A DNA stretch of 20,602 bases. It comes from Candidatus Methylomirabilis sp. Lineage in GTDB: Bacteria; Methylomirabilota; Methylomirabilia; Methylomirabilales; Methylomirabilaceae. This document shows, piece after piece, positions 4,421 through 17,525 of the stretch (its first letter is position 1; each line of letters begins with the position of its first letter). The notes beneath the pieces are model-generated. The model made no database searches, was not told where the DNA came from, and saw only the letters and a program-made list of their open reading frames with translations. Where the stretch lies: NCBI GenBank assembly GCA_041498975.1, contig JBGQJI010000035.1, positions 1 through 20,602 of the forward strand, given 5' to 3'. A program made the translations under genes and the position numbers.

Positions 4421-4448
4421 GTTCACAGTTCAGAGTTCATAGTTCGGA
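4421..4448. repeat. Heptamer tandem repeat GTTCRNA x4
   Basis: gttcaca gttcaga gttcata gttcgga directly after the AI-2E stop. Confidence 0.75.
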
Positions 4449-4734
4449 GCTGAGATGAGAAATGCCCTCAACCGTCAACGGGTGGTGCAGGACTTCCGGG
4501 CAGGGTCGGGGCTATTGGCGAGTGCCGCCTGCCGAATGGCTATTGGCATGCAGGCCGATCGGGGACAGACGTGTCCGTGGGCCTGCGAGAGCAGGCCGGC
4601 TGCGCTATGATGGTCTATAGATCAGTCTGCTATCGAAGAAGGATGAGGGATCTTAGAACCTCAGCAGGGCTGGAAACGTCAAGGCAGGCATCACTACCCT
4701 GAACCGACCCCGTGCGCGGGCATGATCCGGTTGG

Positions 4735-5064
4735 TTAGTAGCCGCGGTGACCACCACGGCCTCCGCCTCCACCTCCGCCTCCGCGAAATCCACCCGCACC
4801 GCCGCGACGAGGAGCTTGTTCTTTCGCCTCGTTGACTGTGAGCACCCGGCCACCGACCTCTCGCCCGTTCAAGGCTGTGATGGCCGATTGAGCATCGCTT
4901 TGGCTCCCCATCTCGACAAAGGCAAAGCCCCGGGGCCTTCCGGTGTCCCGATCAGTGATGATCTTCACATCGGAAACCTCGCGACCGCCCTCTTCGAAGA
5001 GGGCACGAAGCTGGGATGCGTCGGTGTCAAAAGGCAGATTACCTACATACACTCGTGTCCCCAT
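4735..5064 (-). CDS. RRM (RNP-1) RNA-binding protein with Gly-rich tail
   Basis: RNP2 VYVGNL, RNP1 RGFAFVEM, C-terminal RGG/poly-Gly; AAAGGAG RBS upstream. Confidence 0.96.
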   Translation of the reverse strand: MGTRVYVGNLPFDTDASQLRALFEEGGREVSDVKIITDRDTGRPRGFAFVEMGSQSDAQSAITALNGREVGGRVLTVNEAKEQAPRRGGAGGFRGGGGGGGGRGGHRGY

Positions 5065-5974: not shown

Positions 5975-6670
5975 ATGGCGACTGCGCCAACCCGACAGTA
6001 CGTGAATTTCGCCTTCTACAGGATCGACCCGACCTGGCGACGCCTTCCGAAGGAGGAGCGGGAGGCGAGCAAGAAGGAGTTCAGCGCCGCGGTGGAGGAA
6101 TGGCGCGAACGGATGCTGCTGATCCCCTACTCCACCGTCGGGCTCCGACCGGATACCGACTTCATGCTCTGGCGGATCGGGGATTCGCTGGACCTGTTCC
6201 AGGGGATGACCCGGCAACTCAACGGGACCTCACTCGGCGCCTACCTGATGACGCCCTACTCGCTCGTTGCCATGACCAAGCGCTCGATCTATGTGGACAA
6301 GCACGTCCACCCAGGCCAAGAGGGCCGTCGGGCGCGAGTCGTCCCCGGCGAGTACCGCTACCTGTTCGTCTACCCATTCCTGAAGACGCGCGACTGGTAC
6401 CTGCTGCCGGTGGAGCGGCGCCAGGAGATGATGAACGTTCATATCGAGGTTGGCCACAAGTTTCCCTCGGTCAAACTCAACACCACCTACTCATTCGGTC
6501 TCGATGACCAGGAGTTCGTGGTGGCGTTTGAGAGCGACCAACCGGCGGACTTTGTGGACCTGGTCATGGCGCTCCGGGAGACCGAGGGAAGCCGCTTTAC
6601 CCTCCGGGACACCCCGATCTTCACCTGCGTTCGTAAGACCATCCACGAAGTCCTGGACGACCTGGGTTAA
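5975..6670 (+). CDS. Chlorite dismutase superfamily protein, probably coproheme decarboxylase (ChdC/HemQ-like)
   Basis: Two ferredoxin-like halves; YSTVGLRPDTDFMLW; YPFLK..W; proximal His in MMNVHIEVG; TTYSFGLDDQEFVVAFE; GGAGGAG RBS. Confidence 0.85.
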   Translation: MATAPTRQYVNFAFYRIDPTWRRLPKEEREASKKEFSAAVEEWRERMLLIPYSTVGLRPDTDFMLWRIGDSLDLFQGMTRQLNGTSLGAYLMTPYSLVAMTKRSIYVDKHVHPGQEGRRARVVPGEYRYLFVYPFLKTRDWYLLPVERRQEMMNVHIEVGHKFPSVKLNTTYSFGLDDQEFVVAFESDQPADFVDLVMALRETEGSRFTLRDTPIFTCVRKTIHEVLDDLG

Positions 6671-6773
6671 TTCCGTTCCGGCTAGTTGCACCGCGATGGT
6701 GAGGCTAGCGAAAGCGATAGTTCTTAGCAGCGCACCTGTCAGCGATTCGCCGCAACAAGCTGGAACGGCACTA
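6668..6773. mobile_element. 106-bp MITE-like element, copy A
   Basis: Terminal inverted repeats taattccgttccggctagttgc / gcaacaagctggaacggcacta (18/22); right end in CTAG context; related copy at 13869-13974. Confidence 0.65.
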
Positions 6774-6787
6774 GAAGGCGGGGATGC

Positions 6788-7627
6788 ATGGAGTCGCGGC
6801 TGATCCGGATCGGGCACAGTCCCGACCCGGATGATGCATTCATGTTTTATGCGCTGGCCAAGGAGAAACTCGACACCGGGAGGCTTCGCTTCCAGCATCT
6901 CCTCGAAGGGATCGAGACGCTGAACAATTGGGCGCTGCAAGGGAGGCTGGAGGTTACGGCGATCTCGGCCCACGCCTATGCGTACGTGGCCGACCGCTAC
7001 ATCCTGCTGCCACACGGCGCAAGCGTCGGCCGCAACTACGGGCCGATCCTCGTCGCAAAACGCCCGTTCGACCTCGCCGAGCTGGGCGGCAAGCGCATTG
7101 CCGTCCCTGGGAAACTCACCACTGCATTCCTCCTGTTGCGCCTCTGCCTGGATGGTTTTCACGCCGTTGAGGTCCCCTTCGATCGAATCTTCGATGCAGT
7201 GGAAGGGGGCGAGGCGGAAGCCGGCCTCGTCATCCACGAGGGGCAGCTCACCTACGGGGCCCGAGGTTTCCTGAAGCTGCTGGATCTGGGAGCCTGGTGG
7301 CATGAAAAGACCGGCCTGCCGCTGCCGCTTGGGGCCAACGCCATCCGTAAGGATCTGGGCGAGCCGCTGTGTCTGGAAGTCTCGCGTCTTCTTCGGGCCA
7401 GCATCGAGTATGGCCTGGCCAACCGGGAGGAGGCCCTTCTGTACGCGATGCAGTTCGGTCGCGGGATGGAACGGGCTCTGGCCGATCGATTCGTCGGGAT
7501 GTATGTGAACGAGGACACCCGCGTCTGGAGCCCTGAGAGCCGACGAGGCCTCCAGGAGCTGTTGAGTTTGGCCTGGGAGCGAACCCTGATCGCGAAACGG
7601 GTCTGTCCGGAGTTCCTCCCAGGCTGA
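6788..7627 (+). CDS. mqnD: 1,4-dihydroxy-6-naphthoate synthase-like protein (MqnA/MqnD family), futalosine menaquinone pathway
   Basis: GHSPDPDDAFMF, IETLN, S.G.NYGP, IAVPGKLTTA, GLVIHEGQLTY, DLGAWW..TGLPLPLG, MYVN motifs. Confidence 0.88.
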   Translation: MESRLIRIGHSPDPDDAFMFYALAKEKLDTGRLRFQHLLEGIETLNNWALQGRLEVTAISAHAYAYVADRYILLPHGASVGRNYGPILVAKRPFDLAELGGKRIAVPGKLTTAFLLLRLCLDGFHAVEVPFDRIFDAVEGGEAEAGLVIHEGQLTYGARGFLKLLDLGAWWHEKTGLPLPLGANAIRKDLGEPLCLEVSRLLRASIEYGLANREEALLYAMQFGRGMERALADRFVGMYVNEDTRVWSPESRRGLQELLSLAWERTLIAKRVCPEFLPG

Positions 7628-7898: not shown

Positions 7899-8537
7899 TT
7901 AGAGCAAGCCCTTGTCCTGAGCGTAGAGGGTCAATTCCAGCCGGCCGTCTACGTGGAGTTTTTCATAGATGTGATGCAGGTGAATCTTGACCGTGCCCTC
8001 GCTGATGAGCAACTTTCCGGCGATCTCTTTGTTATGCAGGCCGCTGGCCACCAATCGCACAATCTCCATCTCGCGCGACGTCAGGACCCCTGCGATCTGG
8101 CGCGCCCCGGCCTCCCGTTGGAGCAAGGTTTCCAGCGCGCGGGCGAAGGAGCGCTTCTCGAACCATTGTCCGCCGGCATGCACCTTGCGGACGCACTTCA
8201 CCAGGAGTTGCGGCGCCATTTCTTTCAGCACCACTCCGCTCACGCGCAGGCGGATGGCTTCCAGGGCCTCGTTTTCGTCGATGGCCGCCGTCAGGAGGAC
8301 CACGCGCGTTGCCAGCCTTTCCCTTTTCATCTCCCGGAGCACTGCCAGGCCACTCTTCCCCGGCATCCGTATATCGAGGACCAGGACGTCCGGGAGATAC
8401 TTGCGCACCGCTAGCAGGGTCTCCTCGCCGTCCCGACAACGCGCCAGGACCTTGAAGTCTTGCTCCAGGCGGAAGAGTTGCTCCAGCCCATCGAGGACGA
8501 TGGGATGATCGTCGGCCAACACCAGGCCAATGGGCAT
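7899..8537 (-). CDS. NarL/FixJ family response regulator (REC + LuxR HTH)
   Basis: ATG at 8537 immediately after the kinase stop; LADDHP, VLDIRMP, LK; LTSREMEI..GLHNKEIA..ISEGTVKIH..IYEKL. Confidence 0.95.
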   Translation of the reverse strand: MPIGLVLADDHPIVLDGLEQLFRLEQDFKVLARCRDGEETLLAVRKYLPDVLVLDIRMPGKSGLAVLREMKRERLATRVVLLTAAIDENEALEAIRLRVSGVVLKEMAPQLLVKCVRKVHAGGQWFEKRSFARALETLLQREAGARQIAGVLTSREMEIVRLVASGLHNKEIAGKLLISEGTVKIHLHHIYEKLHVDGRLELTLYAQDKGLL

Positions 8538-8538
8538 G

Positions 8539-10266
8539 TCACACTCCTGGGTGCGCGAGCGGCAGGGTGATCTCCAGGCGAGCTCCAAAGTCGGTTGAAT
8601 TGATGGAGAGTGATCCACCCACGGAGGCAATCCTTTCCTTCAGCATCACCGGCCCCAGCTTCATGTCGGTTAACGCGGCGTGGTCATACTGCCCGCGGAA
8701 GGGGAAGCCGGTGCCGTTGTCCGCCACGACGATCCTGACCTGATTGTCCTGCATGCCCACCTCCACGCCTACGACGGAGGCGTTGGCATGCCGCGCGGCG
8801 TTCACCAGGGCCTCGCTCGCAATGTGATAGATCTCGTCTGCTAGTCCCTTGGAGATCCCCGCCTCCAGGTGCTCCTTCTTCAACTCTACGCGCAGGCCCC
8901 AGTCGCGCTCGATCCTTTTGGCCAGTTCGTCCAGGCGGGCGCCAAGCCTGGGCTCCGCCTCGGGCGAAGCGATCGTGGCTCGCTTCAGCCCGTGGATGAG
9001 GAAGCGCAAGTCGCGCTGCTGGGTGGCGATCAGGCGCTGGATTTCCAGCAAGGTCTCCATGGCCGCCTGCGGTTCCTCTTCCAGCAGGCGGCGCACCGTT
9101 TCCAGTTGCAAGGCCACCCCGGCGAGCGACTGGAGCAGGCCATCATGCAGGTCGCGGGCGAGGCGCATGTGCTCGTCTGTGACCGCCGCTTGCTGTAGCC
9201 CTTGCAGCAGGTAGAAATGGTCCATGCGGGCCGTCACCAGCCTGGCGACGATCTCTCCCAGGCCCAGGTCGTCAGAGGTCATCCGTGACCTGTCCAGGGA
9301 GAGGAGGCGCCCTTTCAGCGTTTCGCCACGCAGGCGCAACGAGAGGACGGCACTGATGGCAAACCATGCCTGCAGTGTGGTGTGGAGGGGCAACCCGCGC
9401 CAGCGCTGCACGCCGGCAGGTGACGTATGCAGCACCGAAGGCACCTCAGCGCGGACGTTCTGGCAGAGAAAATCAGCGTCGGCCAGCGGCTCAGCGACCA
9501 AAGGAAGGAAGGTGCCCGGCGCCTCGCGGCTCCAGTGGATTTCGCCACGGGGCCACAAGGCCAGGTTTAACCAGGGCTCTTCCCCCACCTGCCAGGCGAT
9601 GAGCAGTCGCGGCGAGCCGAGGATGCTGGCCGCGTGCTCCAGCACCTCTCGAACCAGCGGGCGGGCCTCTCGCGGGACCGAGCGTGGCCATCCGGCCAGC
9701 ATGGACAGTTCGCGACGCACCCGCGTTTCGTGCGCTCCCAGGACACCCAGGAAAACTGCCACCAGCCCGAGATACAGGCCATGGATTATGAGGCCGGGGA
9801 GCTCGGAGACCGGGTCGCGCAAGACCCCCGCCCCGTAGACACCCATTCCGATAAATGTCGCCAGGGCTGCCAACGCGGTCCACAGCGTCCCGCGCCACTG
9901 CCAGCGCAATGTGGCGGCCAGGAGCAGGAAGACAAAATAGAGGATAAAGGGACTGGTGGCGCCTTCGGTGAAAAAGATGAAGATGGAAAAGAAATAGATG
10001 AACAGGGAAAAGACCGCCAGATCCAAGACATGCGTAATGAGTGGCATGCGCCCTAGGGGAGCGCCCGGACGCAACACCAACAAGGCTACCAGCAATGCAT
10101 AGACCAGGTAGGCGATCGGAAAGGAGTAGGCGGACTTCGCGTACTTAGCAGGCTCAGAAGGGTCCAGCCAGATCGCGAGAAGGGTAAATGCCCCCAGTAC
10201 CACCCGTCCAGTGGCAATGAGGCATTCTGCGCGTCTCTGTGGAAAGTACGGCGAATCCATCAGCAC
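8539..10266 (-). CDS. Membrane-bound sensor histidine kinase (HisKA_3 + HATPase)
   Basis: N-terminal multi-TM region, GAF-like middle, RLARDLHDGLLQSL H-box, EALVNAARHA N-box, DNGTGF G1 box; alternative ATG at 10260. Confidence 0.93.
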   Translation of the reverse strand: MLMDSPYFPQRRAECLIATGRVVLGAFTLLAIWLDPSEPAKYAKSAYSFPIAYLVYALLVALLVLRPGAPLGRMPLITHVLDLAVFSLFIYFFSIFIFFTEGATSPFILYFVFLLLAATLRWQWRGTLWTALAALATFIGMGVYGAGVLRDPVSELPGLIIHGLYLGLVAVFLGVLGAHETRVRRELSMLAGWPRSVPREARPLVREVLEHAASILGSPRLLIAWQVGEEPWLNLALWPRGEIHWSREAPGTFLPLVAEPLADADFLCQNVRAEVPSVLHTSPAGVQRWRGLPLHTTLQAWFAISAVLSLRLRGETLKGRLLSLDRSRMTSDDLGLGEIVARLVTARMDHFYLLQGLQQAAVTDEHMRLARDLHDGLLQSLAGVALQLETVRRLLEEEPQAAMETLLEIQRLIATQQRDLRFLIHGLKRATIASPEAEPRLGARLDELAKRIERDWGLRVELKKEHLEAGISKGLADEIYHIASEALVNAARHANASVVGVEVGMQDNQVRIVVADNGTGFPFRGQYDHAALTDMKLGPVMLKERIASVGGSLSINSTDFGARLEITLPLAHPGV

Positions 10267-10292
10267 CCTGGTTCATGTCAAGCGCCTTGAAT

Positions 10293-10322
10293 AGCCTAGG
10301 TGCGCTTCCCTGGCCTTGTCAA
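10293..10322 (-). promoter_or_regulatory. Sigma70-type promoter for kinase-regulator operon
   Basis: Minus strand TTGACA-N18-TAGGCT about 30 nt upstream of the kinase start. Confidence 0.55.
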
Positions 10323-10732
10323 GGGAATTTCCCGGAGTCCAGGAGTCCGGCCTCCAGCCATTCGACTGCTCTTGCAGGAGTGGCTCGCGAACTCCACAAG
10401 CCCTTCCACTCTTCTTGCCCCGGCGCGCTCACAACCGCATTGGGGATGAGCGCTGCACCCCCCGTTGAACCCCGTCATCGCACTGTCGGGCCCACCGCGC
10501 CTTCGACCGGCTGAAGCGGCCAAACGGCTTCCGGAGCAACGGCTTCGAAAAGCTTCACATGAGGAATGACTTCCCTCAGCGGACCTTCCCCATCTACGAG
10601 CTGTTCTCAGCAAGGGTCACACACCGAACACTGCTATCAATGCTGAGACCGCGAGCAGAAACGCTTCTGCTATAAGCTGACAGCCGCGCAAACCCCGCGG
10701 ATCGCACATCTCCCGGCAAGAGCACCGAGCAC

Positions 10733-10805
10733 TAAGGCCATTGGGCCGAACTTTCGGGCCAATTATATATCGAAAGTTATAAAAATATCTATCCTTTACT
10801 ATATT
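10733..10805. promoter_or_regulatory. Cluster of imperfect palindromes resembling NarL/DosR-type operator boxes in AT-rich DNA
   Basis: TAAGGCC-ATTG-GGCCGAA, GCCGAAC-TTTC-GGGCCAA, ATATATC-GAAA-GTTATAA, TCTATCC-TTTA-CTATATT; 10761-10800 has only 7 G/C in 40 nt. Confidence 0.4.
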
Positions 10806-10971
10806 GTGCCCCGTCGAGCCTGCCACTACAGTAATTAAAAGAAGACAGAGTTAGGTAAGACAAATTTAGAAACCGCTTCATTCCAGAAAGAATGACTAAG
10901 TTGAGTCTTATCAGAGTAAGAAAAGCATTGCCCCACTTTATTCGTCACCCTTCACAGGAGCGCAACGGGGC

Positions 10972-11127
10972 ATGTCGGCAACCGGTAGAATCCCGGCGTT
11001 CTCTCCTCGTGCTGTTTCTATGCCGAATGGTGAGGATGCCAAGCTTGACTTGGGCGCTACGTACATCGGGAGGACGTCCCGGCGATCCGTATCGGACGTC
11101 GGGCCACCCAGGAGGAGGGCAGCATGA
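10972..11127 (+). CDS. Putative 51-aa small ORF overlapping the radical SAM start (ATGA)
   Basis: AGGAG at 10956-10960, ATG at 10972 (alternative 11020), MSATGRIPAFSPRAVSMPNGEDAKLDLGATYIGRTSRRSVSDVGPPRRRAA; no recognised homology. Confidence 0.3.
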   Translation: MSATGRIPAFSPRAVSMPNGEDAKLDLGATYIGRTSRRSVSDVGPPRRRAA

Positions 11128-13613
11128 ACGGCGCGAACGGTAACGGCAGCAACGTGGATCGAGTGAAGGAACTGCACGCGCATATCGACAAACAACAGCA
11201 GCGGCGACAGAGCAACAAGGTGCTCCACGCCCATCCTTCCCCCCTCTTCTGGCTGGAGCGGAATGTGCCAGTGAAAGAGATGATGACCGAGCGTGTCGTG
11301 GCGAACGCGGCAATTCCAAAGCGGGTCAACCTGTATGTGGGCACGCCCTACTGTCTCCCCACGAATCCCGACAGGTGCGGCTTCTGTCTGTTTCCGAGCG
11401 AGGTGTACCAGGGGCAGGATCAGTTGGATACGTATCTGAAATACCTCGAGTGGGAAGGACGGAGATATCAGCAGTTCTTCGACGGCGCTGAGCTGGCGAG
11501 CATCTATTTCGGGGGAGGGACGTCCAATCTCTACAAGCCGGAGGATTACCACAAGCTTCTGGGGATCGTGAGAGGGGTCTTCCCGACGATCCCGGCGGAC
11601 ATCGAGATCACCCTAGAAGGCATTCCCCAGCTTTTCACACGGGAGAAGCTCGAGGCGATGAAAGCGGCCGGGGTCAACCGGATCAGCATGGGTGTACAAC
11701 AGCTCGACGATGAGATGATCAAACTCAGCGGACGAAAGCAGAAGGCCAAGCACGCCTTCCAGACACTCGAGTGGTGCCAGGAACTGGGGCTCCAGAGCAG
11801 CGTCGATCTCATCTTCGGATGGCCGCGGCAGACGATCGAGCTGATGCTGAAGGACCTGGATGCCATCGTCGGGACCGGTATCCGTCACCTCACTCACTAC
11901 GAATTGAACGTGGCCGGCCGGACCGATTTCGCTCGCAATCACCGGGACGAACTCCCTTCAACCGAGCAGAACGTCGAGATGTATCGGGTATCCAAGCAGT
12001 TCCTCGAGAGCCATGGATTTCGGCAGGTGACTGCCTACGACTGGGAGAAGCCGACCCTCGGCCTCTCTGGCGAGTACCTCTTCGAGGAGCACATGCGTCA
12101 CTTCTTCACCTGTGACAAGGAACAGGGGATCGTGGGCTACGACATGTGGGGCTGGGGATTCGCCGGCGTCTCCTACTTCCTGGGCACGCCGGAGATGCCG
12201 GGTTGGACGTACATGAACTGTCCCAGGGTGGGAGAGTACTTCGGTCGTCTCGACGAAAGTCGGTTCCCCATCGACCGGGGGTTCCACTACACCCAGAAGG
12301 ATCTGCGAATCGCCTGGCTCTTCCAAACCCTCCAGGGGATGAGCGTCGATCTGAGTGGCTACCGGAAGATCTTCGGCTTCGACCTCCTGGAAGAGTACGC
12401 CGACACCTGGCAGGCCCTGACCGAGCGGGGATGGGTCGAGATCACCCAGGAGAAGGTCATGCTGGTGGGGGACGGGGTCTTCTACACCCCCCTGATTCAG
12501 GGCCTGCTCGCGCATGAGCGGATGGAGGAGATGAGGAAGAGCAAATCGGCAGCGGGCGCGTTGCTCGAGGTCCCGCCGGAGTTCCCGCAGAAAGCCGCTA
12601 CGCGGATGCCTGCCGAAATCGGTCAGCTTCCAGAAAACGTCATTCCCTTCCCGGAGATCGAGACCCCAGTCCCGAGCGTGATAACCCCCTCTCGCCAGGT
12701 CGCGCCCCGATCGCGAGAGGTCGGGGAGCCCGAGTATTACCGCGAGCAGACGAAGGATAGCGTCGATCTCTCACTCCTCAGGATCTCTCACGACATCCGG
12801 CATGACGTTCCTATCCTTCTGACTCACGGGACATTCTCCAACGCCCAGGTCTGCACGAGGCTGGCCGGATACCTGGCCGAGAATGGTTTCGACTGTTGGA
12901 TCCTTGAGCTGAGGGGTCACGGCCGAAGCGAGGCAGGAGACGGTCACCTGGACTTCGAGCGGTTCAGCGAGTTCGACGTGCCGGCGGCGCTGCGGGCAGT
13001 GCTCCACCGGACCAGAAAGGAACACCTCCTCTGGGTCGGGCATAGCGGGGGTGGGCTGGTCCTCCTGATGCACCTAGCGCGGAACCCAGAGGCCTGCGCG
13101 CGGATCAAGGGGATCGTGACGCTGGCCAGCCAGGCCACCGAGGCGGGAGCAACCTGGGCCGGCCGGGCGAAGATCGCGCTCGGCGCCATGGCGAACAATC
13201 TGATCGGCTACTCGCCTGGCCCATTGCTCAAGCTGGGCCCGGAGAACGAATTCAAGGGCGTGATGAACCAGTGGTTCCGCTGGAACTGGAACCGCCAATG
13301 GACCGGAAAAGACGGCTTCGACTACCTCGAGGCAATGAGGAGGGTCGACGTCCCCGCGCTCTGCTTTGCAGGAGGCGGAGATCGGTTCATCGCCCCCTAT
13401 CAGGGTTGCCGCCGGCTCTACGACGCGCTAGGAAGCCTCGATAAGCGGATGGCGTTCTGCGCCAAGTCGGAGGGGTACGGTGAGGATTACAGCCACGCGC
13501 GGATCATCGCGAGCCGTCAGGCACAACAGGAGATCTGGCCCATGATCGCGGAATGGCTGACCAAGCGGGCGCGATCGATGCAGGGCGATAGAGAGCTCGT
13601 CCGAGTCGCTTAG
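11124..13613 (+). CDS. Fusion protein: HemN-like (class C type) radical SAM domain + Pro-rich linker + alpha/beta hydrolase
   Basis: LYVGTPYC-x7-CGFC, IYFGGGT, RISMGVQ, DLIFGWPRQT in aa 1-~470; LLTHG, ELRGHGRS, GHSGGG (Ser641), GGGD (Asp753), YSH (His791); AGGAGG RBS; single uninterrupted frame. Confidence 0.9.
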   Translation: MNGANGNGSNVDRVKELHAHIDKQQQRRQSNKVLHAHPSPLFWLERNVPVKEMMTERVVANAAIPKRVNLYVGTPYCLPTNPDRCGFCLFPSEVYQGQDQLDTYLKYLEWEGRRYQQFFDGAELASIYFGGGTSNLYKPEDYHKLLGIVRGVFPTIPADIEITLEGIPQLFTREKLEAMKAAGVNRISMGVQQLDDEMIKLSGRKQKAKHAFQTLEWCQELGLQSSVDLIFGWPRQTIELMLKDLDAIVGTGIRHLTHYELNVAGRTDFARNHRDELPSTEQNVEMYRVSKQFLESHGFRQVTAYDWEKPTLGLSGEYLFEEHMRHFFTCDKEQGIVGYDMWGWGFAGVSYFLGTPEMPGWTYMNCPRVGEYFGRLDESRFPIDRGFHYTQKDLRIAWLFQTLQGMSVDLSGYRKIFGFDLLEEYADTWQALTERGWVEITQEKVMLVGDGVFYTPLIQGLLAHERMEEMRKSKSAAGALLEVPPEFPQKAATRMPAEIGQLPENVIPFPEIETPVPSVITPSRQVAPRSREVGEPEYYREQTKDSVDLSLLRISHDIRHDVPILLTHGTFSNAQVCTRLAGYLAENGFDCWILELRGHGRSEAGDGHLDFERFSEFDVPAALRAVLHRTRKEHLLWVGHSGGGLVLLMHLARNPEACARIKGIVTLASQATEAGATWAGRAKIALGAMANNLIGYSPGPLLKLGPENEFKGVMNQWFRWNWNRQWTGKDGFDYLEAMRRVDVPALCFAGGGDRFIAPYQGCRRLYDALGSLDKRMAFCAKSEGYGEDYSHARIIASRQAQQEIWPMIAEWLTKRARSMQGDRELVRVA

Positions 13614-13868
13614 GGAGGCCACGCGGCCGCACGGCGAATGGCCCAACGCCGTGAAAGGCAGCCCGTGTCGTCGCAGAGGACCTTTGGGGGAACGCAGAGC
13701 CGCCTGTAGCACGGCACAAGCGAACACGACGAGTCCAGGTGCGAGACATTTCACTCGGCGGCGTGCCTCATGGGTTGGGCATTCGGCCACCCTCGGCCGA
13801 AAGATTTCTCGCTCCACCTCAGAGAACGGTGCCCGCAAGCCCGATATCGGAGGGAGCCGGAGGCGCGC

Positions 13869-13974
13869 GAGTGCCGTCCCAACTTGTTCGGACACATCGC
13901 ACAAGTATCCGACGGCCGATCCGGATGCCTGCGGGTCATCTTATCATTCGGCGGATAACGTTCGAACGGCACTA
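13869..13974. mobile_element. 106-bp MITE-like element, copy B
   Basis: Imperfect inverted ends gagtgccgtcccaacttgttcg / cggataacgttcgaacggcacta; right 30 nt are 23/30 identical to copy A. Confidence 0.6.
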
Positions 13975-16530
13975 GATCTTTTCGCGAAGATCCATCCCCT
14001 CCGCCACGAGTGCCATGACGTCGTGGTACTGGAAGGGCTTGTTCAAGACCAGATCGACTCCAGCCTCTTTCAGCTTCCCGCGGTCAAGCGTCAGGCCCCA
14101 CCCTGTGACGAGGGCCACGGGGGTCTTCGGGGCTAACCCCTTGATGGCTGCGGCCACCTCCCAACCCGAACACTCCGGCATGCCCAGGTCGGTGAGGACG
14201 AGATCGAAGTCAGTCTGGCGGAAAAGGCGGAGCCCTTCTCTACCACCGCCTGCCTGAACCACGGTGTGGCCCGCCGCCTCGAGGATATCTGAGAGGAGTT
14301 CGCGCACCATGCCATCATCGTCGATGATCAGGATGCGTCCTGGCTTGGCTAACGGTGCCGGTTTCGGTAGTGGCGCCGATCGGAGCTTCGAGGGGATCGG
14401 CAGCCTGATCTCGATGGTTGTGCCGTGCCCGGGATTGCTGCGGACGTTGATTTCGCCGTGGTGGCCTCTGATAATTCCGTACGACACGCTCAGGCCGAGG
14501 CCAGTCCCCTTGATCCCCTTGGTGGTGAAGAAAGGATCGAAGATCCTGGCTTTGACTTCTTCGCTCATCCCGATCCCCGTGTCCGACACGCTGGCGTAAA
14601 CCCACCCATCTACCTCTTCGGTCTTGAAGGTAAGCTTCCCTCCCTCCGGCATCGCCTCTACGGCATTGAAGACGAGATTGGTCAGGACCTCCCGGAGTTC
14701 GGAGATATTCCCCATCACGGGGGGGATCTTCCCGTAGCCGGTCTCCATCTCGATGGTCGCGCCGGCTAGGTTGGCCTCGTCCTTCCACTTGGCTTCGGTG
14801 ATGGCCAGCGTATCTTTGATGGCCTGGTTCAGGTCCACCGGGAAGAACTCTTCTTCTCGCCGCTTCCGGGTGAAGTGCTGCAAGCGGCGGACGGTATTGG
14901 CCCCATCCAGTGCCGCCTTTTCGATCGCGTCAAGGCCTCGCTTGGTCTCCTCGTCCAGGACCACCCGGCGCAGCAGTTGGGCCCGGCCAAGGATCGCGCC
15001 CAAAATGTTGTTGAAGTCATGGGCCACCCCTGACGCCATTTCACCCAAGGCGTGAAGCCGCTCGGTCCGCAGGAGCTGTTGCTCCAGTTGCTTCCGCTCC
15101 GTGATATCCCTCGCGATTCCCTGCCAGCCGGTCACGCGGCCCATTGCATCCCGTACCGTAACAGTCCCGATCTCAACGGGGACGACGCCAGAGCCGTCCT
15201 TCTTCACCATCTCCAACTCGTAGAAGCTGAATGGGTCCTTCCCTCTTGCCGCCCTGGCGAAGATCTCCTGAGCCCGGCGCTGGCTCTGGGGAGTCAGGAT
15301 ATCGGTGGAGTAGCGACCCACTAGCTCCCCTGGTTTGTACCCGAGGATTTCCTCAACCTTCGGGTTCAGGTACGTAAATCGCCCTTCACGGTCCAACGCG
15401 TAGATGACGTCACGGACGTGTTCGGCCAGCAGCCGGTATTTCTCCTCTGAGGCCTTCACCGCCTGGGCATGGGTCTGGACCGCTTCGAACAGCTTCGCGT
15501 TCTCGATGGCGATCGCGGCTTGGCGGGCGATCGCATCGACCAATCTCACATTCTCCTCTGCAAACTTTTGCCGCGCATCCCACCAGACAGCAAGCAACCC
15601 TCCGATCGGCTGGTCCTTGACGAGCATGGGAACGAACAGGATGGAGCGATGCGGGAGGTTCCGAAAGATGTCATGGGCGCACCTGGGATCCGTGGAGGTA
15701 TCATCGGTGTAGACCGCGGACTTCTTCTCCCACGCCTCTTGGAGAAGCAGGTTCCCTTTGAGCGGAAGCTGGGTTCCCATGAACACACCGAGACGCTCCC
15801 TCGGCACGTGGTATCCAGCGAAAGGATTGAGGTTACCCGTCGAGGGGTCCAGCACGTAGGCCCCCACAGTATCGGCCGAGAGCACACGGGCGACCGCTCG
15901 CGCGATGCGCCGGACCGCTTCTTGGAGATCGAGGGTGGAATTGACGGAATAGCTGACCTCGAGCAGCGTTTGCGTCTCTTTCAGGCTTGCCTGCGTCTCA
16001 CCGATCAGCCGGGCGTTTTCCAGCGCGATGCTCAGTTGGCGCGCGATCGTCTGTAGTAACAGCAGCTCATTGGTTGAGAAGGATGACGATCGGGACTTGG
16101 CCAGGTTCAGCATACCGATCGCCCGATCCTGGCCGATAAGGGGAACGCACGCGTGAGCGACAACTGGCAGCCCGGACAGGGCTAGCCGAGGACACTGATC
16201 GATGACACTGCATTCGAGGGGCGGATCGGCCCCTATGAGGGAGCGAAGGCAGGGGCAGTCCAGGCAGGTGAGGTTGGCGGCTTCCGGTCGAATCTGAGCA
16301 GTATGTCTGACCGCAGCAAGGTAGACCCTACCCTGCGGATCCGCTGTGACGGCGGGCCAGACCCGACTGTCCGGTGGATCCTGGGCAAGGTAGATCCAGC
16401 CGAGGACCGCATCGTCAACCGCCTTCAGGAGCTCCTCTAGAACGGTATCCAGGAGCTTGTCGGGCGCCGACGACCGAACCGCGGTCGAAACCGCCATGAC
16501 GGCCGAGAGACTCCTACTAGGCACGTCCAT
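13972..16530 (-). CDS. Cytoplasmic hybrid sensor kinase GAF-GAF-PAS-HisKA-HATPase-REC
   Basis: Two GAFs ending IALENARL / IAIENAKL; PAS (SEEKYRLLAE...ARDITERK); H-box GVAHDFNNIL; NAVEAM, DTGIGM, FDPFFTTK, GTGLGL; C-terminal REC (IIDDD, TDLGMP, KPF). Confidence 0.95.
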   Translation of the reverse strand: MDVPSRSLSAVMAVSTAVRSSAPDKLLDTVLEELLKAVDDAVLGWIYLAQDPPDSRVWPAVTADPQGRVYLAAVRHTAQIRPEAANLTCLDCPCLRSLIGADPPLECSVIDQCPRLALSGLPVVAHACVPLIGQDRAIGMLNLAKSRSSSFSTNELLLLQTIARQLSIALENARLIGETQASLKETQTLLEVSYSVNSTLDLQEAVRRIARAVARVLSADTVGAYVLDPSTGNLNPFAGYHVPRERLGVFMGTQLPLKGNLLLQEAWEKKSAVYTDDTSTDPRCAHDIFRNLPHRSILFVPMLVKDQPIGGLLAVWWDARQKFAEENVRLVDAIARQAAIAIENAKLFEAVQTHAQAVKASEEKYRLLAEHVRDVIYALDREGRFTYLNPKVEEILGYKPGELVGRYSTDILTPQSQRRAQEIFARAARGKDPFSFYELEMVKKDGSGVVPVEIGTVTVRDAMGRVTGWQGIARDITERKQLEQQLLRTERLHALGEMASGVAHDFNNILGAILGRAQLLRRVVLDEETKRGLDAIEKAALDGANTVRRLQHFTRKRREEEFFPVDLNQAIKDTLAITEAKWKDEANLAGATIEMETGYGKIPPVMGNISELREVLTNLVFNAVEAMPEGGKLTFKTEEVDGWVYASVSDTGIGMSEEVKARIFDPFFTTKGIKGTGLGLSVSYGIIRGHHGEINVRSNPGHGTTIEIRLPIPSKLRSAPLPKPAPLAKPGRILIIDDDGMVRELLSDILEAAGHTVVQAGGGREGLRLFRQTDFDLVLTDLGMPECSGWEVAAAIKGLAPKTPVALVTGWGLTLDRGKLKEAGVDLVLNKPFQYHDVMALVAEGMDLREKI

Positions 16531-16798: not shown

Positions 16799-17525
16799 TC
16801 ATGCGCGCTCTGCCACCAGACGGCCTTCCTGCATGACCGGGACGACCTCGGTGGTATCCACCCCCGAACAGATCTCCAGGTCCGATCCAAAGCCTTTCTG
16901 GATGAGGTGTTTTCCCCATTCGCAACACTGGAGCATCCCGAGAAGGTCATTTTGGTGGACCACGAAAAGTTGGTGCGCAGCCCTTGCAGCATCACTGAGC
17001 TCCAAGGAGCGATCAGAGATGGTGAGCAGGCGATCGATGAGCATCCCGCCGCCAACGGCGTCCTCAAGGCAGAAGCGGCCACGTTGGCCCGCGCAGACGA
17101 TCAGGACGTCGAGGCCGGCGCGCATGAGCCACCGCGCCGCGGCAGAACCGTTCAGGAAGGCGGTCGCGACGATCACCCGAGCGCCCTCAACCGCCTGAAA
17201 CGCGCGGGTCCCATTGGTCGTGGTTAGGACAATTGTCTTGCCCTCGACATTGTCACGGCCGTATTCGACCGGAGAATTCCCCAGGTCGAAGCCTGGCACC
17301 TTGACCGCACCCCGTTCTCCGGCCAGCAGGCCGCCACCCGCCAAGCCTCAGCGCCAAACCCCTGGCCTCCTTCAGCGTCAGGACGGGGATGACACCGACG
17401 CACCCGTGGTGCAGCGCGACGGTAATGGTGGTCGTAGCCCGGATCACATCGATCACCGCCACCGCTCGACCAGAGGCGGACCGACGCACCGGATCCAGCC
17501 GGCTGAAAGCAAGGTCAAGGATCAC
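16799..17525 (-). pseudogene. comB: 2-phosphosulfolactate phosphatase family gene split by a frameshift near 17335-17346
   Basis: VIDVIRATTT in the 17525 frame; LLAGERG..GFDLGNSP, LTTTNGT, AFLN, CAG..FCLED continue in the +1 frame to the stop at 16799. Confidence 0.85.

Follow-up and report, generated by a model that had tools for sequence, protein, structure and literature searches.

A HemN-fold radical SAM domain fused to a predicted lipase-like serine hydrolase: a conserved gene of Methylomirabilota that arose from an adjacent two-gene module

The window analysed here, a stretch of 20,602 nt from Candidatus Methylomirabilis sp. (contig JBGQJI010000035.1, positions 1–20,602 of the forward strand), carries a gene that joins a HemN-fold radical S-adenosylmethionine (SAM) domain to an alpha/beta hydrolase domain in one chain of 829 aa. 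The fusion is a real, conserved gene of Methylomirabilota (NC10) and arose from an adjacent two-gene module. Sequence comparison places the protein in the HemN-fold radical SAM group and in the alpha/beta hydrolase fold, within uncharacterised subfamilies of both. By analogy with known systems, the explanation that as a whole fits best is that the radical SAM domain would modify an acyl-(thio)ester by radical chemistry and the serine hydrolase would hydrolyse or transfer the acyl group, the two activities being coupled, a tentative reading to which we give a little less than an even chance.

The fusion gene and its parts lie in the window as follows.

11124..13613, plus strand: whole open reading frame (ORF) of the radical SAM–linker–hydrolase fusion (P0001), 829 aa plus stop, ATG start
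11110..11119, plus strand: Shine-Dalgarno-like AGGAGGAGGG, 4 bases 5′ of the ATG, read from the sequence
11124..12569, plus strand: HemN-fold radical SAM domain, residues 1–482 (PF04055; likeness to 1olt; predicted local distance difference test score, pLDDT, mostly >90)
11352..11387, plus strand: predicted iron–sulphur motif C77-x7-C85-x2-C88 (CLPTNPDRCGFC), of non-canonical spacing, kept in 24/24 fused proteins
12570..12710, plus strand: disordered, proline-rich linker, residues 483–529 (pLDDT <50; 25–35% column identity)
12711..13610, plus strand: capped alpha/beta hydrolase domain, residues 530–829 (PF12146, PF00561, PF12697; Foldseek matches to lipases)
13044..13046, plus strand: codon of Ser641, predicted nucleophile in GHSGG, kept in 24/24, between strand 635–640 and helix 642–653
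13380..13382, plus strand: codon of Asp753, predicted triad acid, kept in 24/24, after strand 745–750
13494..13496, plus strand: codon of His791, predicted triad base, kept in 24/24, in the loop after strand 774–779

A first-pass annotation of this DNA had described one 829-aa frame in which a HemN-fold domain is joined through a linker to an alpha/beta hydrolase, and the ORF, its Pfam matches and an AlphaFold2 model all confirm that layout. The base composition of the frame is of coding type (G+C content 0.80 at third codon positions, GC3, versus 0.42 at second positions, GC2), and the AGGAGGAGGG ahead of its ATG bears a strong likeness to a Shine-Dalgarno sequence. The Radical_SAM profile matched residues 84–245 at 64.2 bits against a cut-off of 29.5, while Hydrolase_4, Abhydrolase_1 and Abhydrolase_6 all exceeded their cut-offs over residues 563–763 (PF12146, PF00561 and PF12697 scoring 66.9, 59.3 and 42.7 bits). 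The model, built on a 107-row alignment, has a mean pLDDT of 91.1 and a predicted template modelling score (pTM) of 0.69, with both domains mostly above 90 and residues 483–529 below 50. The proposed linker was thereby borne out: it holds 11 prolines in 47 residues, and identity across residues 481–540 is just 25–35% in an alignment of 24 fused proteins. The radical SAM domain includes an N-terminal segment particular to its family and a C-terminal subdomain like that of HemN, and the three motifs that the annotation had picked out were all located, GGGT at residues 130–133, RISMGVQ at 186–192 and DLIFGWP at 228–234. The proposed triad of Ser641, Asp753 and His791 is conserved in 24/24 fused proteins and occupies canonical positions in the model. 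What the annotation missed was the spacing of the cluster motif, which is CX7CX2C and not CxxxCxxC. The fusion protein has no transmembrane-like segment, its 19-residue hydropathy peaking at 1.42.

When 5.8 billion proteins were searched through a word index, 8000 candidates were scored and 832 of them reached E ≤ 0.001. Among the best 120 of these 832 were 23 full-length fused clusters (810–887 aa, 68–93% identity, carrying both sets of Pfam domains), 2 fragments and 95 standalone radical SAM proteins (467–503 aa, 56–68% identity). The fused clusters come from JGI, NCBI, ENA and Logan sources, and clustering at 50% identity, in another library, leaves one cluster of the fused form (P0016). 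Scanning genomes, with each species represented once, yielded 14 loci, the first ten of which (L001–L010) are titled Methylomirabilota, Methylomirabilis or, once, ‘Patescibacteria’; all ten hold an uninterrupted, ATG-started ORF of 815–818 aa. The linkers of the 11 sequences (the window and L001–L010) diverge widely, yet their indels are all in frame, and Cys77, Cys85 and Cys88 together with Ser641, Asp753 and His791 are invariant in the alignment of 24 fused proteins. Every one of the 25 relatives of the hydrolase domain that are 521–2000 aa long proved to be the radical SAM–hydrolase fusion, which means that this hydrolase subfamily has no other fusion partner. The claim that this is a natural fusion therefore stands on the ten loci, the 23 full-length clusters and the 25 long hydrolase relatives alike; its homologues are not always separate and unlinked, since fused homologues exist and split forms adjoin (at L014 and in 13 inferred pairs, described below).

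One could still suppose that the single frame is an artefact of misassembly, of chimera formation or of a stop codon erased by a sequencing error, and an apparent frameshift elsewhere in the window, in a ComB-like gene on the minus strand near 17271–17317, speaks for such caution. The chance of this is, however, vanishingly small: ten of ten independent assemblies share the 815–818 aa ORF, the linker indels keep the frame, the 23 fused clusters come from four sources and GC3 is 0.80. Because of the fused clusters and the ten uninterrupted loci we exclude an artefact, and the uninterrupted ORFs and in-frame indels rule out a misassembled junction or a lost stop in particular. The locus with the odd title, L003 (DATMXF010000007.1, ‘Patescibacteria group bacterium’), is syntenic with the Methylomirabilota loci, at 68–85% protein identity, but belongs to a bin that is probably mislabelled or contaminated.

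The radical SAM domain matched HemN (1olt) in Foldseek with an E-value of 3.1e-29 and a template modelling (TM) score of 0.81, normalised to the target, over 442 columns. HemN 1olt was also its phmmer hit in the Protein Data Bank (PDB; E 1.1e-23), where the second-best sequence match was NocN (9p2u, E 1.6e-13). The named equivalog models place it in none of the known families: STM4012 (NF006067) is the top-scoring named model at 156 bits (E 1.5e-45), still below its cut-off of 380, followed by HemW (TIGR00539; 143.6 against 205.4), ChuW/HutW (TIGR04107; 138.3 against 400), HemN (TIGR00538; 121.8 against 324.95) and HemZ (TIGR03994; 110.9 against 321.4). Two standalone relatives, P0099 and P0122, likewise miss every named equivalog cut-off. 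Matches in the ESM Atlas were to generic radical SAM and alpha/beta hydrolase clusters only. In the alignment with HemN, Tyr71, Glu165, Gln192, Arg204 and Asp228 of the fusion protein correspond to HemN Tyr56, Glu145, Gln172, Arg184 and Asp209, which we take to be SAM-binding residues. At the putative second SAM site, Tyr71 and Glu165 align to HemN Tyr56 and Glu145, and the region of HemN Phe310 and Gln311 aligns poorly.

The cluster motif, C77-x7-C85-x2-C88, departs from the canonical CxxxCxxC, with all three cysteines kept in 24/24 fused proteins; on this alignment CX7CX2C reads as a variant loop and not as a loss of ligands. Of 156 relatives with a length of 400 aa or more, 133 share this spacing and 10 have CX6CX2C (mostly forms of 700–930 aa extended at the N-terminus); 7, all of them remote, show the canonical spacing, 3 another spacing and 3 no motif. 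We accordingly assign the domain, by sequence, to an uncharacterised HemN-fold subfamily marked by CX7CX2C, whose members were found in Acidobacteriota, Rokubacteria, Deinococcus, Delftia, Burkholderiaceae and Mycolicibacterium, and binding of a [4Fe-4S] cluster and of SAM by the domain is most likely. Eight distant relatives of 700–930 aa (P0143, P0188, P0224, P0232, P0233, P0235, P0250 and P0267) carry a C-terminal HemN-like domain with CX6CX2C; the N-terminal extension of such relatives, 250–500 aa long, has no firm Pfam match, its hits to DUF4350 and IFT52-GIFT being weak.

Among solved structures, the hydrolase domain comes nearest to monoacylglycerol lipases of bacteria, archaea and humans, to gastric lipases and to lysosomal acid lipase (best structural matches 6v7n, at 3.7e-16 in Foldseek, 1k8q, 1hlg, 7ozm, 6eic and 3hju), with TM scores, normalised to the target, of 0.58–0.75 overall and 0.72–0.75 for the group of 1k8q, 7ozm, 6eic and 3hju. 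The nucleophile elbow GHSGG (GxSxG), the aspartate and the histidine follow one another in canonical order, and in the AlphaFold2 model they come after strands 635–640, 745–750 and 774–779. The model and these matches suggest a Ser-Asp-His hydrolase resembling lipases and monoacylglycerol lipases. A conserved cap motif, QWFRWN, is common only to the fused domain and the standalone hydrolase subfamily. A tblastn search of plasmids with the hydrolase domain gave a single, uninformative match from Xenorhabdus at 27% identity. Many hydrolase-only proteins, P0302, P0305 and P0311 among them, are named ‘oxygen-independent coproporphyrinogen-3 oxidase’ by JGI although they have no radical SAM domain; the name was apparently carried over from the fused gene and would in that case be a mis-annotation that is propagating.

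That the fusion arose from two neighbouring genes is seen in a metagenome-assembled genome of Rokubacteria (L014), where the radical SAM and hydrolase proteins are encoded separately, at 52–67% identity to the radical SAM part and 57% to the hydrolase part of the fusion. The TGA stop of the first gene (6755–6757) overlaps the ATG of the second at 6757 (TGATG), and the start of the hydrolase ORF resembles the first hairpin of the hydrolase domain. With the hydrolase domain alone as query, 298 proteins were retrieved at E ≤ 1e-20; among the best 120 of these, some 118 are standalone proteins of about 270–330 aa with 47–78% identity to the fused domain, and 3 are named Rokuibacteriota or Rokubacteria and 1 Myxococcaceae. 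Of the 95 standalone radical SAM clusters, 13 appear to be co-located on a contig with a hydrolase cluster (119 compared), since in each pair the length of the longest contig agrees exactly and the source is the same. In five of these 13 cases the contig is just 3.2–4.1 kb long, so that the two genes must adjoin there.

A maximum-likelihood tree, made with a careful search from 70 radical SAM-domain rows for which the standalone clusters were sampled one in four and the fused proteins at 17 of 24, recovered the fused clade as monophyletic with support of 100/99; its basal polytomy includes a standalone protein of 473 aa, P0083, that ends right after the radical SAM domain. A Rokubacteria clade containing L014 and L013 has support of 100/100. 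The likely course of events would begin with adjacent, translationally coupled radical SAM and hydrolase genes, an arrangement still kept in Rokubacteria; loss of the stop codon in the Methylomirabilis lineage would then have produced one chain, in which the old intergenic and N-terminal stretch would have become the floppy linker.

Other members of the subfamily adjoin genes for a beta-ketoacyl-ACP synthase (KAS) and an acyl carrier protein (ACP). In the Rokubacteria locus L013 the radical SAM gene is followed by a FabF equivalog (574.6 bits against a cut-off of 493.75) and then by an ACP gene. On two Deinococcus megaplasmids (L015 and L016) a radical SAM gene (43–44% identity, CX7CX2C) is followed by genes for KAS III and ACP with overlapping stops and starts, the three genes forming the end of a polyketide synthase (PKS) and nonribosomal peptide synthetase (NRPS) cluster. 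The first-pass annotation had proposed a tethered acyl substrate; three subfamily members lying directly before KAS and ACP lend that part of it indirect support, but around the fusion itself, in the window and in the Methylomirabilota flanks, such genes and lipid genes are absent. The cluster on the megaplasmids (L015 1–12819, L016 1–12812) encodes type I PKS, NRPS/condensation, thioester reductase, class III aminotransferase, GNAT, radical SAM, KAS III and ACP proteins, and we know of no product assigned to it. At L013 a fourth ORF (4446–4694, plus strand) opens with residues that match the beginning of the Radical_SAM profile only weakly (E 0.009); it is cut by the contig end and may be a second radical SAM gene.

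Around the fusion, the following neighbours can be told apart in the window.

13972..16530, minus strand: hybrid histidine kinase GAF-GAF-PAS-HisKA-HATPase-REC (Pfam), convergent with the fusion and adjoining it in 10/10 Methylomirabilota loci
6788..7627, plus strand: MqnD-like gene, the conserved upstream neighbour (PF02621; PDB match to TTHA1568, 2czl/3a3u, at 2.6e-64)
7899..8630, minus strand: LuxR-type response regulator, part of a two-component insertion that separates MqnD from the fusion here and also in L006 and L010
8539..10266, minus strand: HisKA_3 histidine kinase, the other part of that insertion, likewise present in L006 and L010
5975..6670: ChdC/HemQ-like gene upstream of MqnD in the window

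MqnD lies directly upstream of the fusion in L001, L003, L005, L007 and L008, from which the two-component insertion is absent. Of the nine sequences that extend far enough upstream, six (the window, L001, L005, L006, L008 and L010) have the ChdC/HemQ-like gene two genes upstream of the fusion. A kinase related to the convergent hybrid kinase is found directly upstream in L014, and a regulatory tie between the hybrid kinase and the fusion is something we infer only. Farther downstream come ComB-like, HAD, MFS and second alpha/beta hydrolase genes. As to the substrate, the neighbours in Methylomirabilota are uninformative.

The ComB-like gene (2-phosphosulfolactate phosphatase, PF04029; 16805–17519, minus strand) is split over two frames near 17271–17317, its orthologue in L008 being intact at 241 aa, and represents either a frameshift error or a pseudogene. 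The intergenic stretch before the fusion (10267–11123) is unusually long, at about 860 nt, and has a lowered GC content of about 0.55 and an AT-rich core at 10740–10920. Rfam returned 0 matches over the whole window, hence no riboswitch ahead of the fusion gene. A promoter and terminator scan of 10200–14100 was uninformative: its 2 promoter-like sites (0.9 expected) both fell on the minus strand, and it gave 0 terminators. Elsewhere in the window, a gene for a small RRM-type RNA-binding protein (PF00076, 1.6e-21; 4735–5064, minus strand) is flanked by several hundred non-coding bases on either side and is 85–94% identical across the 8 Methylomirabilota loci reaching the region (L001, L003, L005–L008 and L010).

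Enzymes of the HemN fold most often transfer a methyl or methylene group. If the fusion protein acts on an acyl-(thio)ester, its radical SAM domain would perform a class C-type radical modification (methylation, cyclopropanation or oxidation) of a thioester- or ester-bound acyl group, and the hydrolase would then cut the modified group off its carrier, or alternatively pick it up as an acyl-O-Ser641 intermediate and pass it on. The order might also be the reverse, with the hydrolase first loading the acyl group on Ser641 and presenting it to the radical SAM domain. A more specific version, which we regard as distinctly improbable, is a carrier-free machine: the lipase-like domain would load a fatty acyl group from a membrane lipid or from acyl-ACP onto Ser641 as a covalent tether, the radical SAM domain would branch it at an unactivated carbon with a methyl or methylene group, and the product would be returned or released. 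The signature 10-methylhexadecanoic acids of Methylomirabilis are named in PMC6581649, and it is pure speculation that such a machine could be a route to them.

Several observations weigh against an acyl-(thio)ester role. Neither the 20.6-kb window nor the flanks of the ten Methylomirabilota loci contain an ACP, KAS, PP-binding or lipid gene, and the conserved upstream genes point to menaquinone (MqnD) and heme (ChdC-like) rather than lipid. The KAS–ACP context comes from just three loci, two of them in a more distant clade, and in two Vicinamibacterales genomes, the closest large-genome relatives (57–58% identity), there is no hydrolase, KAS or ACP gene within 10 kb. Cluster binding by cysteines of non-canonical spacing is an assumption. 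The hydrolase domain is not detectably nearer to NosK, whose system is compared below, than to other alpha/beta hydrolases. As regards the two-gene module, the co-location of the 13 pairs is deduced from table values and not read in DNA, and L014 has two apparent 1-nt frameshifts (at about 6015–6025 in the radical SAM gene and about 6885–6895 in the hydrolase gene), which make it a poorly assembled or decaying locus.

Other functions have to be set beside this one. A real fusion may involve no hand-over of substrate at all, the two domains serving separate steps of one pathway or regulon, or the hydrolase merely anchoring or regulating its partner; the linker is long, disordered and fast-evolving, the Vicinamibacterales relatives do without a nearby hydrolase, and a pTM of only 0.69 gives no confident packing between domains. 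We think this unlikely, though worth keeping in view, given that the stop–start overlap of the split form and at least 13 inferred co-located pairs are typical of cooperating proteins and that the triad is kept in 24/24. A tetrapyrrole role is quite unlikely in our judgement: here the radical SAM domain would be an oxygen-independent heme enzyme or chaperone (HemN-, HemW- or ChuW-like, or an anaerobic coproheme decarboxylase) with the hydrolase as an accessory. The position of the ChdC/HemQ-like gene in six of nine sequences, matches to the HemW, ChuW/HutW and HemN models at E 1e-35 to 1e-42, the HemN fold over 442 columns and the JGI family name of oxygen-independent coproporphyrinogen-3 oxidase all favour it. 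However, the ChdC synteny is limited to one lineage and is for that reason weak evidence, with L003 and L007 keeping the fusion and lacking a ChdC match; the HemN, HemW, HutW and HemZ equivalogs all score far below their cut-offs; relatives adjoin KAS and ACP, not heme genes; the JGI name is automatic and stands even on hydrolase-only proteins; and we know of no role for a lipase-like partner in heme chemistry.

MqnD as a neighbour raises the further idea of an MqnK/MenK-like class C menaquinone methyltransferase with the hydrolase as a lipid-facing accessory. MqnD is directly upstream in five loci and separated only by the two-component pair in the window, L006 and L010, and quinones are lipids that would suit a lipase-like domain; MqnK and MenK are themselves HemN-like (PMC10114718). 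Yet about 430 nt lie between MqnD and the fusion, the insertion breaks the pair in three sequences, no Mqn gene adjoins the subfamily's members in Rokubacteria, Deinococcus and Vicinamibacterales, and a preprint surveying quinones is silent on Methylomirabilota, all of which leaves this idea very improbable.

HemN-like enzymes are routinely mis-annotated as coproporphyrinogen oxidases, while the chemistries now emerging among them include methylation, cyclopropanation and heme ring opening. The present case exposes a naming error in hydrolase-only proteins labelled coproporphyrinogen oxidase. It also supplies a Rosetta-stone link, tying an uncharacterised CX7CX2C subfamily to a lipase-like serine hydrolase, with other members tied to KAS and ACP; taken together, these two links narrow the search for a substrate to acyl esters and thioesters, and a single-chain construct could trap its own substrate. 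The host belongs to the intra-aerobic methanotroph lineage NC10, for whose unusual lipids we know of no assigned biosynthetic genes.

The HemN of E. coli (1olt) shares with the radical SAM domain its whole fold, including the C-terminal subdomain, and the positions of GGGT, GVQ, the arginine and the aspartate align; it differs in its identity of 23%, in the TIGR00538 score (121.8 against 324.95) and in genomic context, the fusion having 4 extra residues in the cluster loop and a family-specific N-terminus, RRQxNxVLHxHPSP. Monoacylglycerol, gastric and lysosomal lipases share with the hydrolase domain a capped alpha/beta fold and a Ser-Asp-His triad, at 16–19% identity, but the QWFRWN cap motif is not theirs. 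A true STM4012 gene (L017) stands in an STM4011–4015 operon beside a sulfatase-fold hydrolase and has a HemN_C Pfam hit, which the fusion lacks. The hydrolase partner of STM4012 was considered as a parallel case and rejected, STM4013 being of the sulfatase fold and not an alpha/beta hydrolase; Slr0320 was set aside as irrelevant, being a class B (B12-binding) enzyme. The first-pass annotation had not recognised the architecture among characterised proteins, and in the full-text literature, subscription-only papers lying outside that scope, no paper on a radical SAM–hydrolase architecture or on this gene in Methylomirabilis was found; a review of HemN-like enzymes makes no mention of hydrolase, fusion or fused.

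Closer in kind are systems in which a HemN-like enzyme works on a tethered acyl group. CloN6 is presumably HemN-like and CloN7 presumably of the alpha/beta fold. In clorobiocin formation, CloN6 is described as methylating in coordination with CloN7, which transfers the acyl group from the carrier protein CloN1 (PMC11218499). Here the likeness is by description only, and the differences are that the proteins are separate, the cluster is that of an actinomycete antibiotic and the substrate is pyrrole-2-carboxyl. Jaw5, the HemN-like cyclopropanase of jawsamycin, acts iteratively on ACP-tethered acyl chains (PMC10114718, PMC13459092), which parallels the radical SAM–KAS–ACP cassettes of subfamily members; again likened by description only, it differs in that its partner is an iterative type I PKS and that it has no hydrolase partner.

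NosN and NosK provide the comparison on which an acyl-(thio)ester reading most nearly models itself. In nosiheptide biosynthesis, the HemN-like NosN methylates a methylindolyl thioester bound to NosJ, after which the alpha/beta-fold NosK removes the acyl group, and NocK, which with NocN belongs to nocathiacin, fuses such a hydrolase with a carrier (PMC5585349). Both cases would pair a HemN-like class C radical SAM enzyme with an alpha/beta hydrolase on an acyl thioester, and NocN is the second PDB match of the radical SAM domain. In contrast, NosN and NosK are separate proteins (only NosK and NosJ are joined, in NocK), their substrate is a thiopeptide indolic acid and the motif of NocN is the canonical C-x3-C-x2-C, whereas the fusion is a single chain with no carrier nearby, a CX7CX2C motif and a lipase-like hydrolase. 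We thus read NosN/NosK as a mechanistic analogy for the Methylomirabilota fusion and not as a matter of family membership.

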